Sequence record: KX130865
Source: Shigella phage SHSML-52-1
Strand: one strand, 5' to 3'
Length of the DNA stretch: 64,000 nt
In this document: positions 21,319 to 41,496 of the stretch, one piece after another
Numbering within the stretch: the stretch's first letter is position 1
Layout: every line of letters starts with the position of its first letter
The notes under the pieces: generated by a model
What the model was told of the DNA's origin: nothing
What the model saw: only the letters and a program-made list of their open reading frames with translations
Database searches by the model: none
Translations under genes and position numbers: made by a program

Positions 21319-22053
21319 ATGGAGCTAATCTTTTTAAGTGGCATCAAACGTAGTGGTAAAGACACTACTGCTGATTACATCAATTCAAACTTTAAATCCG
21401 TAAAATACCAATTGGCATATCCGATTAAAGACGCTCTAGCAATAGCCTGGGAGCGTAAACATGCTGAAAACCCCGACGTATTCACCGAGTTGAAATACGA
21501 ATACTTTGAAGGCATTGGATACGACCGTGAAACACCATTAAATCTCAATAAGTTGGATGTTATTGAATTATTGGAAGAAGCGATAATTTATTTACAAAGT
21601 CAATATTTACCAATTAATAATGTTAAAGTATTATCATCATTAGAAGGTGGATATTCATATCTAGATATTAAACCATATGAAGCCCTGCGTGAAGCTATAA
21701 ATAATATCAACGACACATGGTCAATCCGCCGTCTTATGCAAGCCCTCGGTACGGATGTTGTCGTTAATTTATTTGATCGTATGTATTGGGTTAAACTTTT
21801 TGCATTAAACTATATGGATTATATTGGAAGTGATTTCGATTACTATGTTGTAACCGATACACGTCAAGTCCATGAAATGGAAACCGCTAGAGCGATGGGT
21901 GCTACAGTTATTCATGTGGTTCGCTCTGGTACGGAATCCACCGATAAACATATTACAGAAGCTGGGTTGCCTATTGAAGAAGGCGATTTAGTTATTACAA
22001 ACGACGGCTCTTTAGAAGAGCTTTATTCTAAAATTGAAACAATCTTAAGGTAA
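21319..22053 (+). CDS. 1: deoxynucleoside monophosphate kinase gp1
   Basis: 244 aa beginning MELIFLSGIKRSGKDTTADYI with P-loop GIKRSGKDT; close to the T4 gp1 sequence I recall. Confidence 0.9.
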   Translation: MELIFLSGIKRSGKDTTADYINSNFKSVKYQLAYPIKDALAIAWERKHAENPDVFTELKYEYFEGIGYDRETPLNLNKLDVIELLEEAIIYLQSQYLPINNVKVLSSLEGGYSYLDIKPYEALREAINNINDTWSIRRLMQALGTDVVVNLFDRMYWVKLFALNYMDYIGSDFDYYVVTDTRQVHEMETARAMGATVIHVVRSGTESTDKHITEAGLPIEEGDLVITNDGSLEELYSKIETILR

Positions 22054-22057
22054 TAAA

Positions 22058-22743
<686 letters not shown>

Positions 22744-22820
22744 TTTTCACAAAACAGTTTACATAAGGATGATGGCGTGATACTATCATCCTATCAAATA
22801 AACAACCTCAAGGAAATAAA

Positions 22821-23108
22821 ATGAAAACCTATAAAGAATTTATATCACCTGATGCTAACGTTTCTACTCTGACCGAAGCGACCCTTACTTCCGAAGTTAT
22901 TAAAGCAAATAAAGGACGTGAGGGTAAACCAATGATTAGTCTGGTTGACGGCGAAGAAGTAAAAGGTACTGTTTACTTAGGGGATGGATGGTCTGCTAAG
23001 AAAGATGGCGCTACTATTGTTATCTCTCCGGCCGAAGAGACCGCACTGTTTAAAGCTAAGCATATTTCTGTAGCTCAGCTTAAAATTATTGCAAAAACCC
23101 TTCTGTAA
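22821..23108 (+). CDS. ipI: internal protein I (IPI)-like, capsid-targeted
   Basis: 95 aa as T4 IPI; starts MKTYKEFI (capsid targeting sequence); L-T-E at residue 19 gives a 76-aa mature form like T4 IPI*. Confidence 0.7.
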   Translation: MKTYKEFISPDANVSTLTEATLTSEVIKANKGREGKPMISLVDGEEVKGTVYLGDGWSAKKDGATIVISPAEETALFKAKHISVAQLKIIAKTLL

Positions 23109-23112
23109 GTAG

Positions 23113-23149
23113 TTTACATGCTAATAGGACTATGGTATAGTAGTCCTAT
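23113..23149 (+). promoter_or_regulatory. early promoter cassette (-35 GTTTAC, -10 TATAGT inside inverted repeat)
   Basis: GTTTAC 23113-23118, 17-nt spacer, TATAGT 23136-23141; arms ATAGGACTA 23124-23132 and TAGTCCTAT 23141-23149. Confidence 0.6.
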
Positions 23150-23171
23150 CAAAATTAATTAGGAAAATAAA

Positions 23172-23480
23172 ATGAAAACCTACAAAGAATTTATCAATGA
23201 AGCGGCTGCACCAAAGACATTCGTTATTAATACTCAAGCGAGTCTTGATGATGAGTACGCGGAAGCAATTCTGAGGTCACTTGCTAAGAACGGCGTTGAA
23301 GTAACTGCATCAGACTTTAAGAAAGGGGCTCCCGAGATGTTTATTTCTATAGTTAAAGGATCTAAAGCTAAGATTAAATCATCATTCGGAGTTGCTCGTA
23401 CCGATCAAATCGACAGTCATGACTTTAAACAAACCGGCGTTAAACGGCAGAATACGATTGCATCACGCGGAATAAAATAG
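23172..23480 (+). CDS. capsid-targeted internal protein-like (CTS MKTYKEFINE)
   Basis: 102 aa; N-terminal MKTYKEFINE with I-N-E gp21-type cleavage context; body unrelated to the other CTS proteins. Confidence 0.6.
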   Translation: MKTYKEFINEAAAPKTFVINTQASLDDEYAEAILRSLAKNGVEVTASDFKKGAPEMFISIVKGSKAKIKSSFGVARTDQIDSHDFKQTGVKRQNTIASRGIK

Positions 23481-23492
23481 TTTATAAAACCG

Positions 23493-23530
23493 TTTACTTT
23501 TAGATAGGGTAGTGATACTATTACCCTATC
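23493..23530 (+). promoter_or_regulatory. early promoter cassette with 9-bp inverted repeat
   Basis: GTTTAC 23493-23498; TACTAT 23516-23521; arms GATAGGGTA 23503-23511 and TACCCTATC 23522-23530. Confidence 0.6.
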
Positions 23531-23549
23531 AACTACTGAGGAGAATAAA

Positions 23550-23735
23550 ATGAAACGCGCTGAACTGATTCGTAATGTTGCTGTAGTAATTGCTTCAATG
23601 GCTTTTAGTTTTTCGATGTTTGTAGGATTCATTTGTGGACTACTGACAACAACTGAAAATTCTATCTCATTGGTAGTAGCATTTCTAATCGGTTTAATCG
23701 CTATTGTTATGGATAAAATTGCAAAAGGTGAGTAA
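23550..23735 (+). CDS. small membrane protein (two predicted TM helices)
   Basis: 61 aa, hydrophobic stretches VAVVIASMAFSF and LVVAFLIGLIAIV; GAGGAG SD. Confidence 0.5.
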   Translation: MKRAELIRNVAVVIASMAFSFSMFVGFICGLLTTTENSISLVVAFLIGLIAIVMDKIAKGE

Positions 23736-23736
23736 A

Positions 23737-24099
23737 ATGAAATATCACGTATATGCGGATTTTGAAGCAAATCCTTCTAAAGACCCGGATTGTCGTTTAT
23801 TCCGTAATCCGTTTGATTCAGCAGCTCAAGCATGGGCCTGGATTAAAACTTGTACTCCTTCTTACACTTTCTTTGAAGTGGTAGATGATAATGGTGTTTT
23901 GCATCCAGAACCTACAGAAACTATTAATTTCCTTCTGTTTGCTGGTTATGACTGTTATCCTCTTGGTGGTATTGACGACCTTGTTGCTACAGGAAAAACT
24001 GTTGAAGCTCTTCGCGAAATTTATAAAAACGCAGAAGAAAATTTTGACTGGTATCATATTGTTGATGCTCATACCTTTGAAGTGGTGGAACATTCATGA
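23737..24099 (+). CDS. hypothetical protein
   Basis: 120 aa from ATG 23737 (MKYHVYADFEA) 2 nt after the upstream stop. Confidence 0.55.
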   Translation: MKYHVYADFEANPSKDPDCRLFRNPFDSAAQAWAWIKTCTPSYTFFEVVDDNGVLHPEPTETINFLLFAGYDCYPLGGIDDLVATGKTVEALREIYKNAEENFDWYHIVDAHTFEVVEHS

Positions 24100-24386
24100 T
24101 TCTTTATGCTAAGGTAAAATCCGTTGAGAATGGATATGAAAGCGATCAACGTGCAGCTAAAGCACTAGTCGATTACTATGGTATTTTGACCCACTTTGAA
24201 GTTGAAAAGGTTTACGTCGACCGTTCATCTTCACAGGTTAAATTACTTTGGGAAGACCGCAAATTTAATAGTGTGAACTTTGATTTCTTTATTGAAACAG
24301 AAAAAGGTCCTCTTGAATATGATATTTTCAAGAATCCTTTAAATCTTGAATGTATTGAGTATAATTACATTAATATGGTACGGTGA
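24096..24386 (+). CDS. hypothetical protein
   Basis: 96 aa; ATGA start-stop overlap with upstream gene. Confidence 0.5.
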   Translation: MILYAKVKSVENGYESDQRAAKALVDYYGILTHFEVEKVYVDRSSSQVKLLWEDRKFNSVNFDFFIETEKGPLEYDIFKNPLNLECIEYNYINMVR

Positions 24387-24390
24387 GTAA

Positions 24391-24906
24391 ATGAATATTT
24401 GTTTAGGCAGTACAATTCCTAAGGGTTATGTAATTGATGTCACTACCTATGAAAATGACGGGGACAACTATAAAACCAAAACATTGTTTGAAGTGGAAGA
24501 GCATGAGCTCCAACAGTTTAAATATCTCTTGAAGAAATTTAAGAGTCGTCATTCCAGCACTAAAGCTGAACGTTACTGTGGTAATACACCATTCAGTGAC
24601 TGCTCGCTTATTATCTACGAATATCTGGTTGAAGGGCTGTTCTCAGACCAACTCCGACCAGAATTTATTAAAAAGGTCTTTGGCATCGAAGTAGACCTTG
24701 GTGATAAATCTGAAGAAGACGAAGCCCGCGTATTCGACCTGTTCTTTGTGAAAGGCGATGAGATATCTCAAGGACTTATTGATATTCTTGGCTATGCTTC
24801 TGAATACTATGATTACGATTTCTTGCGTGTAGTTGAACGTGTCGAATTTGCTTATATTGAAGAAGAAATTGTTTTGCCAACTGTTAAAATGATTGATTTG
24901 CTTTAA
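24391..24906 (+). CDS. hypothetical protein
   Basis: 171 aa ORF tightly packed after upstream gene. Confidence 0.5.
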   Translation: MNICLGSTIPKGYVIDVTTYENDGDNYKTKTLFEVEEHELQQFKYLLKKFKSRHSSTKAERYCGNTPFSDCSLIIYEYLVEGLFSDQLRPEFIKKVFGIEVDLGDKSEEDEARVFDLFFVKGDEISQGLIDILGYASEYYDYDFLRVVERVEFAYIEEEIVLPTVKMIDLL

Positions 24907-24985
24907 GAATTATGTGTTATTATTAATTCATACCCTCTATTACCAAAGGTGCTCTAAAGTGCCTTTCATAATAGAAAGTTATTAA

Positions 24986-25060
24986 GGCCCTGTAGCTCAA
25001 TGGGAGAGCTGTCAGCTCATAACTGATAGGTAGCTGGATCGAAACCAGCCAGGGTCACCA
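24986..25060 (+). tRNA. tRNA, anticodon CAU (Met or lysidine-type Ile; cannot distinguish)
   Basis: Hand-folded cloverleaf: acceptor GGCCCTG/CAGGGTC, D stem GCTC/GAGC, anticodon stem GTCAG/CTGAT with loop CTCATAA, T stem GCTGG/CCAGC, encoded CCA. Confidence 0.8.
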
Positions 25061-25063
25061 ATT

Positions 25064-25140
<77 letters not shown>

Positions 25141-25158
25141 ACTTCAAGTGAGGAAAAT

Positions 25159-25503
25159 ATGAAAGGTAATATTTATCTGGTAGTTCATGATTTAACGTTT
25201 TATTTTAACGAACAGGATACAGTTATTTCCGACCGGTTGATTAATTCATTATATCAACACGCTGATTACGTTTATTTCCAAAATGAATTTGGCCATTGGA
25301 AGTTTCTTAAAAACCGTTCCGGGTTAACTAGTTTTGAATACTTTGACCGTAAAGACCTTTTAAACGAAATCCCATTGCAACATCGGTTCCAGAAACGCGA
25401 ATCACTATACTATTGTCGCCATATACCAAATGCTGAATGTGTTTATGAAGCGATTAATCTATGGCGTCGGCGTCGAGAGCAAATTGATGATATGCCAAAA
25501 TAA
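25159..25503 (+). CDS. hypothetical protein
   Basis: 114 aa from ATG 25159 (GAGGAA SD); the longer track ORF from 25111 would overlap tRNA-Arg. Confidence 0.5.
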   Translation: MKGNIYLVVHDLTFYFNEQDTVISDRLINSLYQHADYVYFQNEFGHWKFLKNRSGLTSFEYFDRKDLLNEIPLQHRFQKRESLYYCRHIPNAECVYEAINLWRRRREQIDDMPK

Positions 25504-25815
25504 GAAGCCGGGTCGCTACCGGCAAGTCGTCGGACTGATGTTCCCTGAGTAAGGACTGGTCTTAATAAATCTTTATGATTTGTTAATATCCCCTTACATC
25601 ACAGCAGAAACGGCGCACAAAATTATCGATTCGAGGAAATATCTTTGCCGTAATCCGAGTAGCGTTTTTGACGGAACGTTCGGATATGGTCGAGATATGG
25701 CCTTTTAAAAATATTGAGTAGCGTCAACTGCTTAATAACCAGGTTCAAATCCCGGCGTTTCGTACAAACACTTGCCTTAGCAGGTGGAACCCCGACAAGG
25801 TTGCCGCAAGGCTTA

Positions 25816-25841
25816 GCCCCTTCCGAAAGGTTGGGGCTTTT
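25816..25841 (+). terminator. intrinsic terminator (GCCCC...GGGGC + T-tract), copy 1 of 3
   Basis: AGCCCCTTCCGAAAGGTTGGGGCTTTT: GC stem with GAAA loop then U-tract. Confidence 0.65.
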
Positions 25842-25886
25842 GGCATAATAATAAATAGATAAGTTAATTAACTTAGGAAAAGCAAC

Positions 25887-26351
25887 ATGAAATCATACGC
25901 TGAATTTTTGACTGAACAATCTAGTTCAGATGTAAAAGCCGCTGCGATTGCAGCAATTCAAGCAGGTAAATATTCTTACAAAGACGCCTCTGATGAAGAA
26001 CGTTTCCGTTTTATTAGAGATTTTAAAGCCGAAGGTTTTACTAATGCTAATACTGTTAGCCGAGTTTTTAAAAGCCTAGCTGCATCAGGTGAATTGTTCC
26101 AGAAAGCTACAGGTAAAGCACCTGCGCCAAAAACAGACCCTAAAGCAGCTCAAGAAAAAAATATCGCCAAAGGAATTATTTCTAAGTATGAAGCAATTCT
26201 TAAAGAGCTTTTAGTAATCAAAACAGAAGGCCAGAAACTGGCACGAGCACATAGCTTCAAAGATAATCCTCACGCTCATAGCCTTGAGTATGTTGAAGAT
26301 ATCCAAAAACTTATTAAAGACCGTATCTGGTCTGCTAAACAAATTAAATAA
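25887..26351 (+). CDS. capsid-targeted internal protein-like (CTS MKSYAEFLTE)
   Basis: 154 aa; N-terminal MKSYAEFLTE with L-T-E cleavage context. Confidence 0.6.
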   Translation: MKSYAEFLTEQSSSDVKAAAIAAIQAGKYSYKDASDEERFRFIRDFKAEGFTNANTVSRVFKSLAASGELFQKATGKAPAPKTDPKAAQEKNIAKGIISKYEAILKELLVIKTEGQKLARAHSFKDNPHAHSLEYVEDIQKLIKDRIWSAKQIK

Positions 26352-26357
26352 TAGAAT

Positions 26358-26384
26358 GCCCCTTCCTTATGGTTGGGGCCTTTT
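26358..26384 (+). terminator. intrinsic terminator, copy 2 of 3
   Basis: GCCCCTTCCTTATGGTTGGGGCCTTTT immediately after the stop at 26351. Confidence 0.7.
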
Positions 26385-26417
26385 GGTATCTAGGGCATAA
26401 AAATATTTCATAAAGAT

Positions 26418-26446
26418 GTTTACTTCTTCCCTAGATGTGTTACTAT
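26418..26446 (+). promoter_or_regulatory. early promoter (-35 GTTTAC, -10 TACTAT)
   Basis: GTTTAC 26418-26423, 17-nt spacer, TACTAT 26441-26446. Confidence 0.55.
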
Positions 26447-26474
26447 AGACCTATCAAAACATGGGGAGAATATT

Positions 26475-26978
26475 ATGAGTCTTTACACTGAACTGAATAA
26501 AAAATCTGAAGAATCTGCTGAAACTATTTTTAAAAACGTGCAAAAGCGTATTTTGGAAAAGATGTACGATGCAGCATCTAAAGGTGAAAAATCTTGCCGG
26601 TTTCCGATGAGGTGTTCTTCTGATTTATGCGCAAATACTATTGAATGGCTGGAAAGTGAAGGTCTTACGGTAGAGAAAAACCCGGCGACTTCTATTGACA
26701 GTGAATCATATATTAGTATTTCTTGGGATAAATCAAGGGTAGAAGAGAAAGATGGTGATTGGGTTGTAGATGTTAAAACTTCTGATGGTGGACGTTCTGT
26801 TGAAGTTTCAGCTGTAGTTAAAGGTACCCACGAACAAAGGACTTGGGGTTGGGGTGGTGAAGAAAAAGAAATTGTTCTTAGTGTGATTGCCAGGTCAACT
26901 AGTAATAAAATTGCACAAAGCATCATCTATGCTGCATGTATCGAAGCTGGAAAAATTTGCAAAATTAAAAATAAATGA
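26475..26978 (+). CDS. hypothetical protein
   Basis: 167 aa; SD GGGGAG; downstream of early promoter. Confidence 0.55.
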   Translation: MSLYTELNKKSEESAETIFKNVQKRILEKMYDAASKGEKSCRFPMRCSSDLCANTIEWLESEGLTVEKNPATSIDSESYISISWDKSRVEEKDGDWVVDVKTSDGGRSVEVSAVVKGTHEQRTWGWGGEEKEIVLSVIARSTSNKIAQSIIYAACIEAGKICKIKNK

Positions 26979-27035
26979 TGTACAAACACCATGGACGGTG
27001 TTACTATAGACCTATCAAATCAAGAGGAAAACAAA

Positions 27036-27263
27036 ATGGCTACAGTTAGTATTGATGTCGTTGATTATGAATACACAGAAGAAGTTATTCGCAACCGTCA
27101 CCCTGAAGTTCGTATTGATTCAGTACAAGATTCCAAGTTCTGGACAACTGAGCTTAATCTGAGTGGTCCTTATGAAGCTGTTAAGAAGTTCATGGTTGAA
27201 GAATACTGCGAAGGCATGCACCCCGAAGACGCCAAGTTTTATGTCAATTTGATTAAAAAATAA
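27036..27263 (+). CDS. hypothetical protein
   Basis: 75 aa from ATG 27036 (AAGAGGAAA SD). Confidence 0.5.
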   Translation: MATVSIDVVDYEYTEEVIRNRHPEVRIDSVQDSKFWTTELNLSGPYEAVKKFMVEEYCEGMHPEDAKFYVNLIKK

Positions 27264-27298
27264 TTTACAAACTCTTGAGAGCAGAGTATAATGCTCTC
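27263..27298 (+). promoter_or_regulatory. early promoter cassette (-10 TATAAT flanked by GAGAGC/GCTCTC)
   Basis: ATTTAC 27263-27268; TATAAT 27287-27292; arms 27277-27282 and 27293-27298; near-duplicate of the cassette at 57854. Confidence 0.55.
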
Positions 27299-27334
27299 AT
27301 GGATAATAAACCCACTAATTGAAAAGGTAATAAT

Positions 27335-27928
27335 ATGAACACTCTGAAGAAACTTGTTGAATTCATTCGCACTAAACTGGGTACTGCCATGGCTAAAAAT
27401 CTGACTGTCGAAGAACAGTATAACGCAGCTGCAGATAAGTTGATTACCCAAATCAAAGAACTAAAAACGGCTTCTGTTAAATCTATTAATGAAGAAAAAC
27501 GTATTCGCGAACTTGTTAATGAAAAGAACAAGCAAGCCGCTTCTAAGGAACGTGAAATTCGTAAACTCCTGGCTGAAGGACAAGATGTTACCATGCATGC
27601 TAAGCTTGGTCTTCTGTATCGTCGAACTGCCGAACAACTTAATACAAAAGCTGACGGGTATGCCGCTATGCGAATTGAAATTGCTCGTAAGGTGGTTGAA
27701 CTTGACGATGCTCGTCAGAACCTGGCAATCAAACTCGAATACATTCGTGAAACTCGAGCAGCCAATGCCCTTGGTATCTCTACCGCTGACGATGTAATTG
27801 AAATCGCTGCACTGACTAAGGTTGATATCGAAGACACTCTGACTCGTGTTGAAACGTTCAATGGCACTCCAGCTGGTGTCGAAACCACTTCTGCTGATGT
27901 ACAAGAATATATTAACTCTTTGAAATAA
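27335..27928 (+). CDS. coiled-coil protein, possibly PspA/IM30-like
   Basis: 197 aa, almost entirely heptad-like helical sequence with an amphipathic N-terminus; family assignment is a guess. Confidence 0.5.
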
Positions 27929-27936
27929 AATAATAC

Positions 27937-27958
27937 GGAGGACTCCGGTCCTCCTTTT
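27937..27958 (+). terminator. intrinsic terminator
   Basis: GGAGGAC-TCCG-GTCCTCC followed by TTTT, right after the stop at 27928. Confidence 0.7.
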
Positions 27959-27977
27959 GGATAATAAAGGAGTTAAC

Positions 27978-28580
27978 ATGCGAAACCAAAATAATGATAT
28001 TGACTCAATGTTCGAAGAGTTCCGAGATAAGGTAAATCCACCTACGTCTTTAGTTGATTCATTACGATATGTTGCAACCGGACGTAAATGGTACTGGTCG
28101 TCTTCTTATGAGACCACCGAGAAAACGGCTAGCCATAGCAGAAAATCTTTATTAGCCCCAGGTATTATGATTCATGATATCGGAGCTATTGCTAAACTAG
28201 TTGCAGACCATGATATTAGATTCACTGATTTCGTTGCTCCTACGTGGTCTGTTTGTTGTTTAAACACTGAATGGGAATATATCAGCGAACGCTCTGAAGA
28301 TTATTATGGTTTTAGAGATAAGCTTCTGAGGTCTAATATGTTTTATATCGATACAGAAGTTCTAGTCGATAATAAAAAATATTACTTTACGTTAATCATC
28401 GATTCTGAAACTATGTATGAAGGCAAGCCTTTGCTTAAAAGAGTTGATGCTTTAAGTGCTATTGATGCGCTTTATGAAACTATGGTTGTTAGTCCTAATT
28501 TCACTAACAATTTAATCCTTGAGCAATTTATTATGGAATGTAGAGAATATGTCAAAGCCAACCCTATACATGCCAAGTAA
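27978..28580 (+). CDS. hypothetical protein (C-terminal FIMECRE tail)
   Basis: 200 aa from ATG 27978 (AAGGAG SD); C-terminus overlaps the start of the next gene. Confidence 0.55.
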   Translation: MRNQNNDIDSMFEEFRDKVNPPTSLVDSLRYVATGRKWYWSSSYETTEKTASHSRKSLLAPGIMIHDIGAIAKLVADHDIRFTDFVAPTWSVCCLNTEWEYISERSEDYYGFRDKLLRSNMFYIDTEVLVDNKKYYFTLIIDSETMYEGKPLLKRVDALSAIDALYETMVVSPNFTNNLILEQFIMECREYVKANPIHAK

Positions 28581-28944
28581 GCCTTGGGCCTACGAATACA
28601 AACGTAAATTAATCCCGTATGAAGTATTATTTGGTCCTATTTTAGCTTTAGCATTTTTAATCTTTATGATTATAGGAGCTATTTTAGATTCTAGTGAAGT
28701 TATATCGTCTGATGCAGCGTTTTCATTAATGTTCGTCGCACCATTTATTGTACCGTTTTTATTAATGCCTATTAATTGGGTAGGATATTGGCACCAAGGC
28801 CGTCATCACAGAGCCCGATTAAGAGAATGGAAAGTTCAGTGCGCAAAAGCCCAAGCTCAGTATGATGAAGCTGTTAAAAAGTATGAATATGAAGAAGCTA
28901 TGGAATTCGTTAAGGAAATAAGATGCAAAAGCCTCAACTCTTAA
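28549..28944 (+). CDS. small membrane protein, FxKExR-tail family member A
   Basis: 131 aa; two hydrophobic helices; C-terminus EFVKEIRCK overlaps the next start. Confidence 0.5.
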   Translation: MSKPTLYMPSKPWAYEYKRKLIPYEVLFGPILALAFLIFMIIGAILDSSEVISSDAAFSLMFVAPFIVPFLLMPINWVGYWHQGRHHRARLREWKVQCAKAQAQYDEAVKKYEYEEAMEFVKEIRCKSLNS

Positions 28945-29282
28945 CCGTATGGCCTTCTCTTGGTGAGAACATTCTAATTTTTATTATGAGTATTGGCATG
29001 GGATTTGCCTTTGGATTAGTTGGATTTCTTATTGACGGCGTTGTGTTAGGATTTATAGGGAACACTGGTGGATTCACAGACCAATGGCAGGACTTACGGT
29101 ATACCCAAGCCTTTGCATCCATCGCATCATTTTGTACTGTAGTCTATTTTTACTACGATTTTATAAACCACAACAAGAAAAATAAAAAGGTTTACGCTTC
29201 TCAAATGATTAGTTATAATGAACTCCTAGCTAGACGTGAAAATGAAACAATCGAAAACTTTATTAAGGAATGTAGAAAATGA
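28923..29282 (+). CDS. small membrane protein, FIKECR-tail family member B
   Basis: 119 aa; hydrophobic N-terminal half; ends ...ENFIKECRK with ATGA overlap to next gene. Confidence 0.55.
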   Translation: MQKPQLLTVWPSLGENILIFIMSIGMGFAFGLVGFLIDGVVLGFIGNTGGFTDQWQDLRYTQAFASIASFCTVVYFYYDFINHNKKNKKVYASQMISYNELLARRENETIENFIKECRK

Positions 29283-29584
29283 GTAAGATTATTGAAATTA
29301 AAGTACCAGAGTTTAATGATGCCAAATCCGCTTCAGATGCAATTTATAAACTTCTGAATCAAGCTGAACGTATCGAAGAAGAAGCAACAAAGATCGCAGA
29401 CCAATATGCCGTATCATTTTCTGTAGGTGATTATGGTAGCGGTCGTACTTATTATCCTAAGGGTGAAATCGTATCCCAGTGGATGAAAGATGAAATTGAA
29501 AATAATGGCGGCGATGTTAAGCGTGAAGGTAATGGATACGTTATTACTGAAGGTGCTTGGGTTTCGTCTTCTGCGTTGTGCTAA
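29279..29584 (+). CDS. hypothetical protein, WVSSS-x-x-C tail family (1 of 3 tandem paralogs)
   Basis: 101 aa ending GAWVSSSALC. Confidence 0.55.
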   Translation: MSKIIEIKVPEFNDAKSASDAIYKLLNQAERIEEEATKIADQYAVSFSVGDYGSGRTYYPKGEIVSQWMKDEIENNGGDVKREGNGYVITEGAWVSSSALC

Positions 29585-29593
29585 GGAATCATT

Positions 29594-29866
29594 ATGTCTA
29601 AAGAACAAACCGAACTGGCTGAAGCTGTAGCAAAAATCTATGCCGCTATTGAGGCTGCCAAAGAAATTGCTGATAAACAAAACACAACATTCAACTTGTA
29701 CCCAGCTTATGGTATGGGTGGAACCTATCATTCACCCGGACATCTTAAAGCCGATCTTGAACGTTGTACAAAAAACGGTTATGCCGAATGGGCTGACGTT
29801 TACCAATACGACTACAACCTGAGCCTCGAAACTGGTGGTTGGGTCGCATCTTCTCACACTTGCTAA
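29594..29866 (+). CDS. hypothetical protein, WVSSS-x-x-C tail family (2 of 3)
   Basis: 90 aa ending GGWVASSHTC; 9-nt intergenic spacer with AAGGAA SD. Confidence 0.55.
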   Translation: MSKEQTELAEAVAKIYAAIEAAKEIADKQNTTFNLYPAYGMGGTYHSPGHLKADLERCTKNGYAEWADVYQYDYNLSLETGGWVASSHTC

Positions 29867-29875
29867 GGAAACAAT

Positions 29876-30073
29876 ATGTCTCGTGAATTAGATTGTGCTG
29901 TACGTACGGCAGTAGCTGCTCTGGAAAACCTGTTCCAAATTGCAACAGAAGAACGCGAAGAAGTTACATTATGGATTGAAGATAACGCAGGTCTGAATCT
30001 CCAGGACGCGATCTCATTATCCCACAATAGTATCACTTTTCAAGGCTGGGTATCATCTAGTTATTCTTGCTAA
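29876..30073 (+). CDS. hypothetical protein, WVSSS-x-x-C tail family (3 of 3)
   Basis: 65 aa ending QGWVSSSYSC. Confidence 0.5.
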   Translation: MSRELDCAVRTAVAALENLFQIATEEREEVTLWIEDNAGLNLQDAISLSHNSITFQGWVSSSYSC

Positions 30074-30077
30074 AACA

Positions 30078-30116
30078 GTTTACAACAAGATAGGGCTATG
30101 TTATAGTAGTCCTATC
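30078..30116 (+). promoter_or_regulatory. early promoter cassette (ATAGGACTATGTTATAGTAGTCCTAT family)
   Basis: GTTTAC 30078-30083; TATAGT 30102-30107 within an imperfect inverted repeat. Confidence 0.55.
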
Positions 30117-30135
30117 AAAACAAATGGAGTCCACA

Positions 30136-30375
30136 ATGATTTATTACGAAAGTATCGGAACCAAAGTGGTTGGTAAAACCATTACTCGTGAAAAGTTTGC
30201 AAAGATATTCGATATGCGTTATAAAAAATCTGAACACAAAGGCATCCGATTCGAAGATGCGCACTGTACAATTTGCCCTTATAATGAAGACATAAACGGT
30301 ACAATCGTTCCATTGGTAGAGGCTTCACATGATGACCTCTGGGATGAATATAATATCGCATGTCGTGAAATTTAA
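30136..30375 (+). CDS. hypothetical protein
   Basis: 79 aa from ATG 30136. Confidence 0.45.
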   Translation: MIYYESIGTKVVGKTITREKFAKIFDMRYKKSEHKGIRFEDAHCTICPYNEDINGTIVPLVEASHDDLWDEYNIACREI

Positions 30376-30403
30376 GTTAATGAATTAATCCGAGGAAAAT
30401 ATT

Positions 30404-31360
30404 ATGATGTTAGTTATTGGTTCTCGTGCACTTCACTATCACGGTCTTATTGATTCTAGCGCTATTAAAAATAGTGATTGGGACTTTATTGCGGACCAAG
30501 GTTCTTGGAATGCATTCAAAAATCAAATGATGGGTGTATATGTTCACCAAGATAACCCTGATGTCCAAGTTTTCAAATGCTTCCATAATGGACGCGAAAC
30601 TCATTTTGAAGCATACATCGTTCCGGCTATCACTAACGTTCGCGAACTAGTCGGTGAACTCACTCCTGAAGATTTCACGTCTTCTTATGACCTTTTAAAA
30701 TACGCCAAGAAAAATTTGACTAAAGACCGTTTGAACGGGTTTTACTGGGCAACTCCTGAGATATGTCTTGCAATTAAGATGTCTCATCGTTTCAAGAAAA
30801 ATAATCCATTCTTTTTAAAGACTATGAACCATATTCAGTATCTTCGTGGTAAAGGTGTTACACTGAACGATGAACTTACTGAAATTATGCTGAAGCGCCA
30901 GAAAGAAACCTTGAATTATGCTCACCCAGTTCTTGACACTTCTAAAAGTGCGTTCTTTAAAGATGACATCTATACATATGACCATGATACTATTCATGAA
31001 GCCATTGCACTAACAGACCGTCCAGCGTATACATTTTATATGAAAGATGGTTCTGAAGTCATGACCTCACGCGAGAAGTTCGAATCATTACCAGAAATGG
31101 TCAAATTGGCCGGCGTATACGAAGAATCATGTGTACTAGCGTTAGAACGTTCTCAGATTCCTAATAATTTTGAAATCCATCCACGTGATAGTTTTATGAT
31201 GGCCCTTGAAAAGGTCTGTACATCAATCACATCAGGATGGTTCCGTGAGTTCGCTTGGGAAAATTATAGCAAAGTAGTAAGTATGTACCAAAGCTTAGGA
31301 CACGACGATTACGTCAAGCGTTTCAAACAAAACTTTCATATGGTAAAACCTTTCAAATAA
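30404..31360 (+). CDS. hypothetical protein (318 aa)
   Basis: Long ORF with AGGAAAA SD; N-terminal GS...SDWDF loosely resembles a nucleotidyltransferase motif but the spacing is atypical. Confidence 0.6.
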   Translation: MMLVIGSRALHYHGLIDSSAIKNSDWDFIADQGSWNAFKNQMMGVYVHQDNPDVQVFKCFHNGRETHFEAYIVPAITNVRELVGELTPEDFTSSYDLLKYAKKNLTKDRLNGFYWATPEICLAIKMSHRFKKNNPFFLKTMNHIQYLRGKGVTLNDELTEIMLKRQKETLNYAHPVLDTSKSAFFKDDIYTYDHDTIHEAIALTDRPAYTFYMKDGSEVMTSREKFESLPEMVKLAGVYEESCVLALERSQIPNNFEIHPRDSFMMALEKVCTSITSGWFREFAWENYSKVVSMYQSLGHDDYVKRFKQNFHMVKPFK

Positions 31361-31372
31361 TTTCACAAAACA

Positions 31373-31402
31373 GTTTACAAGGTCTGTAGTTGTTGATACT
31401 AT
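31373..31402 (+). promoter_or_regulatory. early promoter (-35 GTTTAC, -10 TACTAT)
   Basis: GTTTAC 31373-31378, 18-nt spacer, TACTAT 31397-31402. Confidence 0.55.
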
Positions 31403-31440
31403 AGACCTATCAAAACAAATGAGTGAATGGAGATATAAAA

Positions 31441-31641
31441 ATGACTACTTTGAATAAACGTTTCGGTAAAGCTAAACCTGGTTGTGCAGCAGAACGTCGT
31501 TATGTTTTCGCTCAGTTAGAAGATGTAGAGTATCAGATTAATCAAGTTCACATTACTGGTATCGAGCCTATGTGTGGCCTTGAAGCTCTTCGTGAAGTTC
31601 GTGATGGGTATCGTCGTGACATCGAAGAAATGTCAAAATAA
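31441..31641 (+). CDS. hypothetical protein
   Basis: 66 aa from ATG 31441 (GGAG SD). Confidence 0.45.
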   Translation: MTTLNKRFGKAKPGCAAERRYVFAQLEDVEYQINQVHITGIEPMCGLEALREVRDGYRRDIEEMSK

Positions 31642-31642
31642 G

Positions 31643-31679
31643 TGTACAAACTGATAGGACTATGTTATAGTAGTCCTAT
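31643..31679 (+). promoter_or_regulatory. early promoter cassette (ATAGGACTATGTTATAGTAGTCCTAT family)
   Basis: GTGTAC 31643-31648; TATAGT 31666-31671; arms 31654-31662 and 31671-31679. Confidence 0.55.
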
Positions 31680-31699
31680 TAAAACATGAGGAGAATATT

Positions 31700-32005
31700 A
31701 TGAAATTAGGCGAAACCAACCGAATTGGTCTTTTAACAATATTTGTATCACTTTTTTACGCAGCTCTTTCTGTTGCAGTATTACAAAAGGCTTACAGTAT
31801 GGATGGTGTTCCTGGTTTTGTATTCTTATCGCCGTTTTTGCTATTCGTTGGAGCATTGTTATTATATGCCACGACTAGTTTCGACCATAACGTCTGGGTC
31901 AATTATAAATGTAAATTGTCTGAAGAAGAACACGCAGAAGCTCGTAAAAAAGCTATTGAATCTACCAATCTAGAAAATTTCATTAAAGAATGTCGAGGAA
32001 AATAA
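31700..32005 (+). CDS. small membrane protein, FIKECR-tail family member C
   Basis: 101 aa; two hydrophobic helices; ends ...ENFIKECRGK two nt before the next ATG. Confidence 0.55.
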   Translation: MKLGETNRIGLLTIFVSLFYAALSVAVLQKAYSMDGVPGFVFLSPFLLFVGALLLYATTSFDHNVWVNYKCKLSEEEHAEARKKAIESTNLENFIKECRGK

Positions 32006-32006
32006 T

Positions 32007-32693
32007 ATGAATAGTTCTAAAGTGTTTAATAGTCAAGCTCGTGCAGTAGGTGGTTTTGCTCATGCGATTAAAAATGACCAGATTAAAAACGAGCCTATGT
32101 TCTTTAACTGCGATTTGAATTTTGCTTTTGATAATGGCGGTCCAATTACTCGTAGCTTCATTATGAACTTGCCGGATGATTGGAACACCGACCAGGGTGT
32201 ATTTGATTCACGAGTCCACATGCTGATGCCTGGTTGGTACCCTGCTATCCCAGGTTATCACCATGACGATGTACCACGTCCGGATATTCCGGTTGGTCAA
32301 CATTTTATTACTGCAGGACAACCTGACTATGACAATCCTCGTTACCATTCTGAACATATTCTTGGTCTTGTTAACGCTGATGTGTGTCCTACTCATTTTG
32401 CAACAGGAACTGCAGAGTTCAGTCAGATTCCTGATGGCGAACTTATCTATCGCCAGTGGCACAAAGAAGTCCTCGAAAAAATTGAAAAAGGTGAACTAGA
32501 GAAATGGGAAGCTCCAGACCGTACTCTTCTTCAGTTTGATTGGCAAACATGGCACACTGGTTCTCGTGCAATTAGTAATGGATGGCGTTGGTTCGGACGT
32601 GTATCTCGTAATACAGACCGAGTTAAAAAGATTACCAATGAAATTCGTGTCAATGCTCAAGTTTATCTGGAATTCCCTATGGAAGGCTGGTAA
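32007..32693 (+). CDS. hypothetical protein (His-rich; possible metal-dependent enzyme)
   Basis: 228 aa; HHDD near residue 85 and WHTGSR near residue 185 could be an HxD...H metal site; speculative. Confidence 0.55.
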   Translation: MNSSKVFNSQARAVGGFAHAIKNDQIKNEPMFFNCDLNFAFDNGGPITRSFIMNLPDDWNTDQGVFDSRVHMLMPGWYPAIPGYHHDDVPRPDIPVGQHFITAGQPDYDNPRYHSEHILGLVNADVCPTHFATGTAEFSQIPDGELIYRQWHKEVLEKIEKGELEKWEAPDRTLLQFDWQTWHTGSRAISNGWRWFGRVSRNTDRVKKITNEIRVNAQVYLEFPMEGW

Positions 32694-33184
32694 TGATTAA
32701 CAAAACATATTGGTCTAATATAGACGATGGCAACGAAGGTATTTCGTACTATTCAGTGGATTGGACAGGATGTCCATCCTACTTAGTGAAACGTATTTGC
32801 CAAGAATTTAAAATCGACCAGCCAGCAGGTATTATCGTGAACAGATACATTAATGGATATCAACCTATCGATGAAGTAATACGAACAACTCAAGCTGAGC
32901 TTGAAAAGTTTTTCAATAAGTGCCAATGGATAACAGGATGGATTATATTTGTACCGTCGGTATGGTTTTTCAGTACTAAGGTGAGTTCTTTCGGTTTTGT
33001 TGATATTATTGCTATCTTATTAGCATCTAGTATCGTAAGTGTTGTTGGTGGCATCATTGGCGGCGGTACCGCCGCCATCATTATTAATCTTATTAAAAGT
33101 AGTTTACAAGAACATAAAGACAAGATAAAAGCCAAGAATAATGAAGTTGAACGTTTTATTACCGAATGCAGGAATTTGAGATGA
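32693..33184 (+). CDS. membrane protein, FIKECR-tail family member D
   Basis: 163 aa; hydrophobic central region with G-rich helix; ends ...ERFITECRNLR overlapping the next start. Confidence 0.55.
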   Translation: MINKTYWSNIDDGNEGISYYSVDWTGCPSYLVKRICQEFKIDQPAGIIVNRYINGYQPIDEVIRTTQAELEKFFNKCQWITGWIIFVPSVWFFSTKVSSFGFVDIIAILLASSIVSVVGGIIGGGTAAIIINLIKSSLQEHKDKIKAKNNEVERFITECRNLR

Positions 33185-33417
33185 GTATAGCAATTTACAT
33201 TAAATCAGAATCATGTGATAGTTATCTGTACACATATGATAAAGATGTGTCAGAAGAAAAAATCAAAGACGACCTTAATACGGACCTTGATATGTTCTGT
33301 CCTATTGCAGATTACAAACTTGCGGTCTCTAATAGTGAAAGTCCATCTAAAGAAACGCGCATTGAAGAATTTATGTCTGAATTAATGGCCAAATCATGGG
33401 ACCGAGATGATGAGTAA
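33181..33417 (+). CDS. hypothetical protein
   Basis: 78 aa from ATG 33181 (ATGA overlap with upstream stop). Confidence 0.45.
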   Translation: MSIAIYIKSESCDSYLYTYDKDVSEEKIKDDLNTDLDMFCPIADYKLAVSNSESPSKETRIEEFMSELMAKSWDRDDE

Positions 33418-33865
33418 GAAAAATAAAGTGAAAGAGCTATCAGCCGGTATTATTTTCCTTACCGAAGATAAAGAGTTATTCATGGGGCGTGTAACTGGTT
33501 CTCGTCCTAAAGGTGCATTAACTCATCGGTGGGATATTCCTAAAGGCCGTGTCGAACCTGGCGAATCTCCTATTGAAGCCGCTATTCGTGAATGCGAAGA
33601 AGAAACTGGGTTTACACAATATGACCCTGCCTTCCTGAAAGACCTAGGTGAACATCATTACTCAGACAATAAGAATATTCATCTGTTCCTATATACCATC
33701 CCTGTAGAGCACGAGCAATTCAGAAACAGTGTTTGTAATTCCTATCATACATTCCAAGGCGGACGACAGATTCCTGAATTTGATGCATTCGCTTTAATTA
33801 AACCTTCTCAATGGGAATATGTAATGGGCAAATCGTTATATAAGGTGCTCACTACCCTCCTATAA
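33407..33865 (+). CDS. nudE: Nudix hydrolase NudE (e.1)
   Basis: 152 aa; Nudix box GRVEPGESPIEAAIRECEEETG; adjacent to lysozyme e as in T4. Confidence 0.85.
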   Translation: MMSKKNKVKELSAGIIFLTEDKELFMGRVTGSRPKGALTHRWDIPKGRVEPGESPIEAAIRECEEETGFTQYDPAFLKDLGEHHYSDNKNIHLFLYTIPVEHEQFRNSVCNSYHTFQGGRQIPEFDAFALIKPSQWEYVMGKSLYKVLTTLL

Positions 33866-33867
33866 GT

Positions 33868-33897
33868 AATAAATACCTCCTATAAACGTGGGAGGTA
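33868..33897 (+). promoter_or_regulatory. late promoter-like AATAAATA plus SD-sequestering hairpin of gene e
   Basis: AATAAATA 33868-33875; arms TACCTCC 33874-33880 and GGAGGTA 33891-33897, the right arm being the SD of e; same layout as the classic T4 e control region. Confidence 0.6.
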
Positions 33898-33899
33898 TT

Positions 33900-34388
33900 A
33901 TGAATATATTTGAAATGCTTCGTAATGACGAAGGTCTTAGACTGACTTTATACAAAGACACTGAAGGCTTTTGGACGATTGGCATAGGCCATTTAGTAAC
34001 AAAGAACCCGTCTTTAGCCGTAGCTAAAGCTGAACTTGACAGAATGATCGGCCGTAAATGCAACGGTACAATTACCCTTGATGAGGCTGAAAAGCTATTT
34101 AATGAAGACGTTGATAAAGCTGTCCGCGGAATCTTGGGTAATGCTAAACTTAAACCGGTATATGATTCTTTAGATGCAGTTCGTCGGTGTGCATTGGTCA
34201 ATATGGTCTTCCAAATGGGTGTAGCAGGAGTCGCCGGTTTTACTAATTCTCTTCGTATGCTTAAACAGAAACGTTGGGATGAAGCGGCAGTAAATCTAGC
34301 TCAATCTAAATGGTATCGTCAGACACCTAATCGCGCGAAACGCGTAATCTCAACATTTAAAACAGGAACTTGGAAAGCGTATATATGA
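33900..34388 (+). CDS. e: endolysin (T4 lysozyme e)
   Basis: Begins [32 protein letters not shown], near-identical to T4 lysozyme; start at ATG 33900 not the upstream GTG. Confidence 0.95.
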
Positions 34389-34666
34389 AAACATATAGTG
34401 AATTTTTATCAGAATCTATTCTTAACGAAGCTACTGACACATTTGCAACTAAGCTAGGTGCAGCTTTGGTTGAAGCTGAAAGTCTATTAGCACGTATTTC
34501 TGAACTTGCTAGTAAGATAGATACTCGCAAATTTGAACGTACCAGCGATATCGCTAAGCTTGAAGCCTTGTTGCGTATGTGCGATAAACCAGAAGAAATC
34601 GCTAAGAACGGCTCGCTGATGAAACAACGTCTTGAAAAATATATTTCAGGCGCTTCAGAAAAATAG
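34385..34666 (+). CDS. capsid-targeted internal protein-like ([13 protein letters not shown])
   Basis: 93 aa from ATG 34385 (ATGA overlap with the e stop); L-S-E cleavage context. Confidence 0.6.
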
Positions 34667-34667
34667 T

Positions 34668-34697
34668 GTTTACTTCCTCTAAGGGTTTTGATACTAT
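34668..34697 (+). promoter_or_regulatory. early promoter (-35 GTTTAC, -10 TACTAT)
   Basis: GTTTAC 34668-34673, 18-nt spacer, TACTAT 34692-34697; upstream of denV. Confidence 0.55.
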
Positions 34698-34724
34698 ACA
34701 TTCATCAACTACTTGGAGGAAATT

Positions 34725-35138
34725 ATGACTCGTATCAATTTAACACTTGTTTCTGAACTGACCGATCAACATCTTATGGCTGAGTATCGTGAATTACCAC
34801 GCGTATTTAGTGCAGTCCGTAAACATGTCCAAAACGGTAAACGTGTAAAGGATTTTAAAATCTCTCCAACATTTATCTTAGGCACAGGTCACGTAACATT
34901 CTTTTACGACAAACTCGAATTTTTACGTTTACGTCAAATCGAGCTAATTGCCGAATGCTTGAAACGTGGTTTCAAAATCAAGGACACGACAGTCCAGGAT
35001 ATTTCCGACATCCCTGCCGAATTTCGTAATAATTATGTCCCGTCCGAAGCGTCCGTTGCGATAAGTCAAGCACGCTTAGATGAAAAAATTGCTCAACGTC
35101 CTACTTGGTACAAATACTATGGTAAATCAATTTACTAA
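34725..35138 (+). CDS. denV: endonuclease V (pyrimidine dimer DNA glycosylase)
   Basis: 137 aa beginning [28 protein letters not shown], near-identical to T4 DenV; GGAGG SD. Confidence 0.95.
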
Positions 35139-35144
35139 GGAAAA

Positions 35145-35405
35145 ATGAAAATGTATCAAGAATTTATCATTGAAGCAGATGCCAAAGGTCCTAAATTTAA
35201 AGTTAAAGCTTTCATTGGTGATGCCGAAGACTTTGGCTCATTAAAACGTAATGGGTATTCTTTCTTAGGTGGCGATGGTAAAGAAATCAACACCTATGCA
35301 AAACGTAGTGAAATTGCTTATGTTGTAGTAAATCCTAAAGTAGATGTTGACGATATTGGATACGATTTTAACAACTTCGGAATTATTTCTGGCGGTAAAG
35401 CTTAA
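35145..35405 (+). CDS. capsid-targeted internal protein-like (CTS MKMYQEFIIE)
   Basis: 86 aa; I-I-E cleavage context at residue 10. Confidence 0.55.
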   Translation: MKMYQEFIIEADAKGPKFKVKAFIGDAEDFGSLKRNGYSFLGGDGKEINTYAKRSEIAYVVVNPKVDVDDIGYDFNNFGIISGGKA

Positions 35406-35408
35406 ATT

Positions 35409-35438
35409 GTTTACGCTTAAGTATTAATATGGTATAAT
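35409..35438 (+). promoter_or_regulatory. early promoter (-35 GTTTAC, -10 TATAAT)
   Basis: GTTTAC 35409-35414, 18-nt spacer, TATAAT 35433-35438. Confidence 0.6.
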
Positions 35439-35469
35439 TACTCTATCAAAACAAACAAGGAAACAAAAA

Positions 35470-35772
35470 ATGAAAACATATCAAGAATTTATTACTGAAG
35501 CGCGAGTGAGTGCAGGTAAATTAGAAGCCGCTATAAATAAAAAGGCCCATTCATTTCATGATTTGTCCGATAAAGACCGTAAGAAACTTGTAAGCCTTTA
35601 TATTGACAAAGAGCGTATTCTCGCTCTTCCTGGCGCTAATGAAGGTAAACAGGCCAAGCCTTTGAATGCTGTCGAAAAGAAAATTGATAACTTTGCTTCT
35701 AAATTCGGTATGTCTATGGATGACCTTCAGCAAGCGGCTATCGAAGCAGCTAAAGTAATTAAAGGTAAATAA
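35470..35772 (+). CDS. capsid-targeted internal protein-like (CTS MKTYQEFITE; IPII-sized)
   Basis: 100 aa, same length as T4 IPII; I-T-E cleavage context. Confidence 0.6.
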   Translation: MKTYQEFITEARVSAGKLEAAINKKAHSFHDLSDKDRKKLVSLYIDKERILALPGANEGKQAKPLNAVEKKIDNFASKFGMSMDDLQQAAIEAAKVIKGK

Positions 35773-41469: not shown

Positions 41470-41496
41470 GCCCCTTCCTTATGGTTGGGGCTTTTT
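41470..41496 (+). terminator. intrinsic terminator, copy 3 of 3
   Basis: GCCCCTTCCTTATGGTTGGGGCTTTTT right after the rI stop; identical stem-loop to 26358. Confidence 0.7.

Follow-up and report, generated by a model that had tools for sequence, protein, structure and literature searches.

Probable orthologues of the T4 stable RNAs rnaD and rnaC, followed by a trailer and a terminator, at the 3' end of the tRNA operon of a T4-like Shigella phage

The species 1 and species 2 RNAs of bacteriophage T4 (rnaC and rnaD, respectively) reportedly arise from a dimeric precursor of both RNAs, which according to the older T4 literature (1970s-80s) is processed by host RNases including RNase P. The T4 tRNA cluster is described as yielding one primary transcript of ~1.75 kb, which presumably ends downstream of the species I gene (PMC2330249). 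In a study that used an RNAC probe for northern blot validation, RNAC and RNAD were assigned to the late class (PMC9697503), and their roles are given as unknown in the literature of 2010, 2022 and 2025. Deletions of the T4 tRNA region are viable (PMC4810235), and any function of rnaC and rnaD is therefore accessory. Furthermore, when a T4-like phage was evolved on E. coli ECOR34, one convergent SNP, located within rnaD, was found in all lines (PMC12685909). This convergence during host adaptation is a hint that rnaD and rnaC matter on some hosts. Annotations of rnaD (118 nt), six bases and then rnaC (139-140 nt) as ncRNAs are available for T4 (MT984581), for the T4 isolate RB55 (KM607002) and for T2L (AJ880101), where rnaD is marked 'putative, by end homology'.

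We analysed a stretch of 64,000 nucleotides of Shigella phage SHSML-52-1 (KX130865), here called the window, with emphasis on positions 25504-25845, which a sequence-only reading had described as a non-coding, GC-rich and structured interval downstream of tRNA genes. In blastn, positions 25504-25886 matched Shigella phage Shf125875 at 100% identity and RB69 at 97%; the source phage is a T4-like member of the RB69 group. The interval forms the 3' end of a phage tRNA operon, which is laid out as follows.

24986-25060, + strand: tRNA-Met (ARAGORN and Rfam).
25064-25140, + strand: tRNA-Arg(UCU) (ARAGORN and Rfam).
25159-25503, + strand: 114-codon ORF, phrog_3355 (unknown function), homologue of RB69ORF150c and T2L trna.2.
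25500-25619, + strand: probable orthologue of rnaD (species 2 RNA), ~120 nt, from alignment to RB55/T4 (L001 2497-2614) and the T2L annotation.
25620-25625, + strand: spacer AAAUUA between rnaD and rnaC, from alignment to the T4 annotation.
25626-25764, + strand: probable orthologue of rnaC (species 1 RNA), 139 nt by the T4 annotation, from alignment, covariance model and fold.
25765-25814, + strand: trailer with three small hairpins, which hardly varies among phages of the T4, RB69, Dhaka and Gapriver types.
25815-25841, + strand: intrinsic terminator AGCCCC-UU-CC-GAAA-GG-UU-GGGGCU, of which the final U opens a UUUU run, from the fold of 25815-25838.

All these elements are on the + strand, from tRNA-Met through tRNA-Arg, the ORF, rnaD, rnaC and the trailer to the terminator. 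The ORFs flanking the interval matched only PHROGs in the category 'unknown function'. In the window the 114-codon ORF parts tRNA-Arg from rnaD, whereas in T4 rnaD lies directly after tRNA-Arg, without an ORF. T2L shares the arrangement of an ORF and then rnaD, and its ORF trna.2 overlaps rnaD by 4 nt. The TAA stop codon (25501-25503) of ORF 25159-25503 is located inside the 5' end of rnaD. The start of the interval, originally placed at 25504, was therefore close but slightly late; the RNA begins ~4 nt earlier, at ~25500, and overlaps the stop codon.

Judged from its sequence, the interval comprises orthologues of T4 rnaD and rnaC, followed by the trailer and terminator. We consider this identity, together with the biogenesis that is carried over from T4, very probable. 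The interval aligned end to end with the annotated rnaD and rnaC of T4, RB55 and T2L, as expected from the earlier suggestion that it could be the counterpart of the small stable RNAs of T4. This first interpretation was thus right and the feature itself is already known, the T4 RNAs having been described since the 1970s, and the comparative fold of rnaC with its complementary hexaloops is a modest addition.

In comparison with T4, there were five differences in the 139 nt of rnaC, while rnaD showed 86.5% identity over 126 nt. T4 rnaC was homologous over its full length, and its position after rnaD, its strand and its predicted fold were all as in the window. Our covariance model of rnaC (R1) matched the window at 25624-25768 with 162.5 bits (E ~1e-38). 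A blastn search against 50,697 phage records yielded 800 matching records, 678 of which covered at least 80% of the query. Identity over rnaC was 95-99% in 674 of the 744 matching records, and reached at least 99% in just five. Rfam 15 has no family for rnaC, rnaD or the trailer, and cmscan of positions 24000-27000 (E<=10) gave none on either strand in 25504-25845. Moreover, blastn detected zero matches to the region in complete E. coli genomes (n=5,426), and at this sensitivity the region is therefore not host-derived.

The G+C content of the interval was 0.44-0.45, versus ~0.36-0.38 in its neighbourhood. This excess is modest, and of the two terms in the description as GC-rich and structured only the second was confirmed in full. 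On the + strand the folds were better than those of shuffled sequences, with z values of -3.8 for rnaD, -4.5 for rnaC and -2.1 for the trailer. In contrast, folding of the - strand was no better than that of shuffles (z from -0.6 to -1.1).

The interval was also rightly described as non-coding. Its ORFs encode just 33-44 aa and mostly start with TTG, and relatives show 1-nt indels and paired substitutions. If the ORFs of 40-44 aa (25580-25708 and 25714-25848 on the + strand, 25623-25748 on the - strand) were real small protein-coding genes, this would agree with the 'hypothetical protein' features that many records of relatives bear over the match. However, besides the TTG starts, the indels occurred inside these ORFs among close relatives (G9062, L013 and HMD-9), substitutions were paired across helices without a bias for third codon positions, and the curated records of T4, RB55 and T2L annotate RNAs here. 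The probability of small coding genes is accordingly almost nil.

Two structural elements were distinguished in rnaD.

25507-25523, + strand: 5' hairpin H1, GCCGG / GUCGCUA / CCGGC, from the fold (the closing pair covaries: AU 11, GC 2, GU 2).
25526-25618, + strand: rod with basal stem GUCGUCG (25526-25532) / CGGCG(C)AC (25611-25618), an invariant base and conserved internal loops.

The 5' 52 nt and the 3' 25 nt of rnaD were almost invariant, while the distal hairpin (~25547-25600) varied by lineage. At least four unrelated distal sequences were found (RB69/window, T4, Dhakavirus and T2L types), all of which fold into the same shape of hairpin plus rod. The window resembles T4 in these 5' 52 nt and 3' 25 nt, in the placement of rnaD directly 5' of rnaC and in the hairpin-plus-rod fold, but the distal hairpin of the window is of the RB69 type rather than the T4 type. 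Column 40 of the rnaD alignment showed natural U/C variation, converting a U.G pair into C-G. This column is close to the adaptive SNP reported at 'about position 41', with a mapping that is approximate.

The fold of rnaC was studied in an alignment of 33 non-identical sequences, which were gathered from phages in GenBank and contigs in IMG/VR and represent about a dozen genera (sampled were Tequatro-, Mosig-, Gapriver-, Karam-, Kagamiyama-, Kanagawa-, Moon-, Gelderland-, Mosuguk- and Marfavirus). The initial pattern used on viral contigs gave many chance matches, which were removed by nhmmer and the covariance model. A single Maricaulis match from the genome-contig scan was dropped, because the covariance model did not confirm it. 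RNAalifold and independent minimum free energy (MFE) folds agreed on a cloverleaf-like consensus, and the same architecture was obtained from separate MFE folds of T4, PG7, ABTNLPp2, fGh-Ecl01 and PM2. In the window it consists of the following parts.

25627-25633 paired with 25756-25762, + strand: acceptor-like stem of 7 bp, CGAUUCG/CGUUUCG, with two central U.U pairs (covariation).
25634-25703, + strand: long arm P2 in the position of the D arm, with a 3-bp base and an apical 5-bp stem (covariation).
25704-25711, + strand: A-rich single-stranded linker UUUAAAAA, with a conserved AAAAAU core in the alignment.
25712-25737, + strand: arm P3, a 10-bp stem with hexaloop CGUCAA at 25722-25727; both-side changes at 8 of 10 pairs.
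25739-25755, + strand: T arm CCAGG-UUCAAAU-CCCGG, one spacer base after P3, of tRNA type, with loop UUCRAAU in relatives.

In the covariance-model alignment of the 33 sequences, standard pairs occupied 94.4% of the cells, against 35-48% when the partners were slid. Changes on both sides were found at 29 of the 48 rnaC pairs, against 5-7 with slid partners, and none of 500 shuffles matched any observed measure of rnaC pairing. Helices 2-5, those of arm P2, were 97-100% paired, with 17 of their 20 pairs changed on both sides. The P2 arm was 64-65 nt long in all 33 sequences, even though its identity to T4 went down to 23/63; this fixed length favours a defined three-dimensional fold.

The third pair of the acceptor-like stem was A-U in 17 sequences and G-C in 15, and U25763 sits at the discriminator position. 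In Pectobacterium phage PM2 all seven pairs of the stem (AGGUUCG/CGAAUCU) are standard, and the U.U positions are occupied by U-A. Directly 3' of the stem, U-CCA is encoded in PM2 and the Marfavirus types and U-ACA in the T4-like phages. The 3' acceptor strand was tried by eye with several partners on the 5' side, and the choice was decided by RNAalifold and by the fully paired stem of PM2. An internal pairing of the acceptor strand, CGGAACG/CGUU(U/C)CG, was rejected on account of an A.C mismatch in EcS1, EnA02 and ZX14.

The T-loop-like motif that had been noticed in the interval, GGTTCAAATCC at 25742-25752, indeed falls within the T arm (25739-25755). Across the 33 sequences, the third pair of the T stem was G-C in 19, U-A in 11 and U-G in one; it was unpaired in the window (A.C) and in VR7 (U.C). 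Unlike nearly all relatives, the window carries G to A changes at 25741 in the stem and at 25747 in the loop, where a purine is kept, and these are also the two T-arm changes that distinguish it from T4 rnaC. The A.C mismatch was common to the closest relatives of the window only. With this mismatch, rnaC of the window could perhaps be slightly impaired.

Several known RNAs mimic part of a tRNA without decoding, including the bacterial Y-RNA-like YrlA and tmRNA with its tRNA-like domain. YrlA-type RNAs are said to occur in some phage tRNA arrays, and their termini reportedly sit in a long protein-binding stem. The termini of rnaC form an acceptor stem instead, and it contains no tag ORF, which sets it apart from tmRNA. 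A canonical tRNA resembles rnaC in its 7-bp terminal stem, its discriminator U, its 5-bp T stem with a UUCRAAU loop and its location in a tRNA array; acceptor stem and T arm, the 'top half' of a tRNA, are thus both present in rnaC. The remainder is different. There is no D arm but an arm of 64-65 nt, no 7-nt anticodon loop but a loop of 6 nt, and no variable loop, and the acceptor stem has two U.U pairs. Because the loop in the anticodon position is 6 nt long and complementary to the loop of the long arm, rnaC cannot decode codons.

According to an alternative that the sequence-only reading had also put forward, this is a decayed tRNA gene in neutral drift, and the acceptor-like stem and T arm would be what is left of it. 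The canonical T arm and the 7-bp terminal stem are what such a decayed tRNA would retain, and the T-stem mismatch of the window points in the same direction. Moreover, model R1 weakly matched real tRNAs (14-24 bits, versus 111-169 bits on rnaC), some GenBank records label rnaC as a tRNA, and in G9062 and PG7 ARAGORN called odd 'tRNAs' that cover part of rnaC. These calls, however, run via an unconserved internal stem, resting on the CGGAACG strand that is mismatched in EcS1, EnA02 and ZX14. In the interval itself ARAGORN called neither a tRNA nor a tmRNA, and the Rfam tRNA model (RF00005) found nothing at E<=10. Rfam gave no YrlA in the interval either; the sole weak YrlA match covers the real tRNAs. 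Drift is also contradicted by the 95-99% identity over rnaC in most records, and by the long arm of fixed length, the hexaloops and the linker, a non-tRNA fold that has been kept with compensatory changes (29 of 48 pairs) across about a dozen genera. We consider decay of a tRNA gene very improbable, and this second suggestion was abandoned.

The P2 hexaloop UUGACG (25668-25673) is exactly complementary to the P3 hexaloop CGUCAA (25722-25727), and the loop-loop helix was 99.5% paired in the 33 rnaC sequences. All Marfavirus-type sequences have loops UUGGCG and CGCCAA, a compensatory change from A-U to G-C. When viral, genome and metagenome collections were scanned with a pattern that left the loops unspecified, only two classes of loop pairs emerged, and these were never mixed. 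This support for loop-loop pairing is suggestive rather than strong, because it amounts to one compensatory event in one clade. The pairing could be intramolecular or intermolecular, and it would demand a sharp bend in P2, an arm of ~25 bp facing an arm of 10 bp.

The distribution of the RNAs over phages indicates a modular organization. In the Dhakavirus phages UP19 (L005 1495-1693) and IME08 (L069 801-997), rnaC is precisely missing and rnaD connects straight to the trailer. This suggests a cassette-like behaviour of rnaC, similar to that of the adjacent tRNA genes. VR26 has the trailer and terminator without rnaC and without rnaD. In most other genera rnaC occurs alone inside tRNA arrays, and in Karam-, Kagamiyama-, Gelderland- and Mosuguk-virus it is flanked by tRNAs within these arrays. 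Since rnaC, rnaD and the trailer were each found independently in different lineages, the interval consists of three independent modules.

By analogy with T4, rnaD and rnaC would be co-transcribed with tRNA-Met, tRNA-Arg and ORF 25159-25503, in a transcript ending at the terminator. Both RNAs would then be excised by the tRNA-processing machinery of the host and accumulate as stable RNAs. An acceptor-like stem, a discriminator U and a T arm are features recognised by RNase P and by 3'-end enzymes. The structure of rnaC suggests that RNase P would cut at the foot of the acceptor-like stem to create the 5' end, and that the 3' end would be trimmed in a tRNA-like manner.

Within the precursor, GAAACG close to the 3' end of rnaD (25607-25612) can form six perfect pairs with CGUUUC in the 3' acceptor strand of rnaC (25756-25761). 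The MFE fold of a joint rnaD-rnaC precursor preferred this pairing over the acceptor stem with its U.U pairs. It may represent an alternative precursor structure or chance, and is inapplicable in phages without rnaD.

The structure and distribution of rnaC also bear on its function. We tentatively propose that rnaC works in trans, mimicking a tRNA without decoding and offering its acceptor/T-arm end to a tRNA-binding factor, and that rnaD serves as a protein-binding rod, with both RNAs being accessory and probably host-specific. In a more elaborate version, which we put forward with similar hesitation, rnaC might be the founder of an uncurated RNA family of about a dozen T4-like genera. Its members would mimic the top half of a tRNA, with arms locked by 6-bp kissing loops, and would act in trans on a tRNA-binding factor of host or phage; a decoy or a cofactor in a tRNA-centred arms race between phage and host would be examples of such a role. 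If true, the covariation-backed fold and the loop pairing provide a concrete handle, in the form of loop and acceptor mutants, on a question that is 50 years old.

The main rival to a function in trans is that these structures are cis-acting elements for stability and termination. Their only tasks would be to end transcription and to keep 3' exonucleases away from the tRNAs and mRNA upstream, and the stable RNAs would be by-products. Such a role fits the position at the end of the operon, the persistence of trailer and terminator alone in VR26, the dispensability of the T4 tRNA region in laboratory hosts (PMC4810235) and the lack of a function in 50 years. In other genera, however, rnaC is located mid-array and is not 3'-terminal, and the near-invariant single-stranded loops and linker would be needless for a mere stability element; both observations are points for action in trans. 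The convergent adaptive SNP in rnaD likewise argues against a purely cis-acting 3' end, which we regard as unlikely.

Whichever role applies, the comparative model names parts that can be tested: the tRNA top half, the arm of fixed length, the complementary hexaloops and the modular arrangement of rnaD, rnaC and trailer.

Downstream of rnaC, the trailer was resolved into three hairpins.

25769-25786, + strand: trailer hairpin 1, CACUUGC-CUUA-GCAGGUG (folding and comparison).
25788-25802, + strand: trailer hairpin 2, AACC...GGUU (folding and comparison).
25803-25812, + strand: trailer hairpin 3, GCC-GCAA-GGC (folding and comparison).

Dhakavirus has ACC-CUA-GGU in place of hairpin 3, and VR26 lacks this hairpin through a deletion. 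Folding and comparison favoured these three local hairpins over the pairing GCCTT...AAGGC quoted in the sequence-only reading, which was unsupported. By contrast, the terminator that this reading had placed at the end of the interval was recovered as a hairpin followed by UUUU at 25815-25841. Its stem covaries, with GCCCC/GGGGC versus GGCCC/GGGCC in Dhakavirus. A simple pattern scan missed this terminator because of its internal loop. The terminator core CCCCTTCC-NNNN-GGTTGGGG was present three times on the + strand (25817-25836, 26359-26378 and 41471-41490), where zero copies are expected by chance. The repeated core looks like a terminator cassette that is reused after different genes.

A structured RNA with a terminator ~45 nt ahead of the next start codon might also be read as a regulatory leader, i.e. 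a riboswitch or attenuator governing read-through into the gene at 25887. Yet there was no Rfam match at E<=10, the modules are also found in unrelated surroundings, as where rnaC lies between tRNAs, and other genes are followed by further copies of the terminator cassette, at 26359 and 41471. We judge a leader extremely improbable.

Just 5' of tRNA-Met, a MotA-box-like sequence TTTGCTTTA (24897-24905) lies 12 nt before TATTAT (24918-24923). Judged by eye against the consensus, the site at 24897-24923 resembles a T4 middle promoter. In T4, a middle promoter has been reported 5' of the tRNA cluster (PMC2330249), and the site fits this report. The T4 late-promoter consensus TATAAATA had no match within 21703-35532.

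The classic species 1 and 2 RNAs of T4 could thus be recovered from raw sequence, although they are absent from Rfam and often mis-annotated. In GenBank records of relatives (MK373779, KJ101592 and MK327945 among others), rnaC and rnaD often lack an annotation, are entered as a short 'hypothetical protein' or bear aberrant tRNA labels, namely tRNA-OTHER, a 95-nt 'tRNA-Met' and 'tRNA-Lys'.
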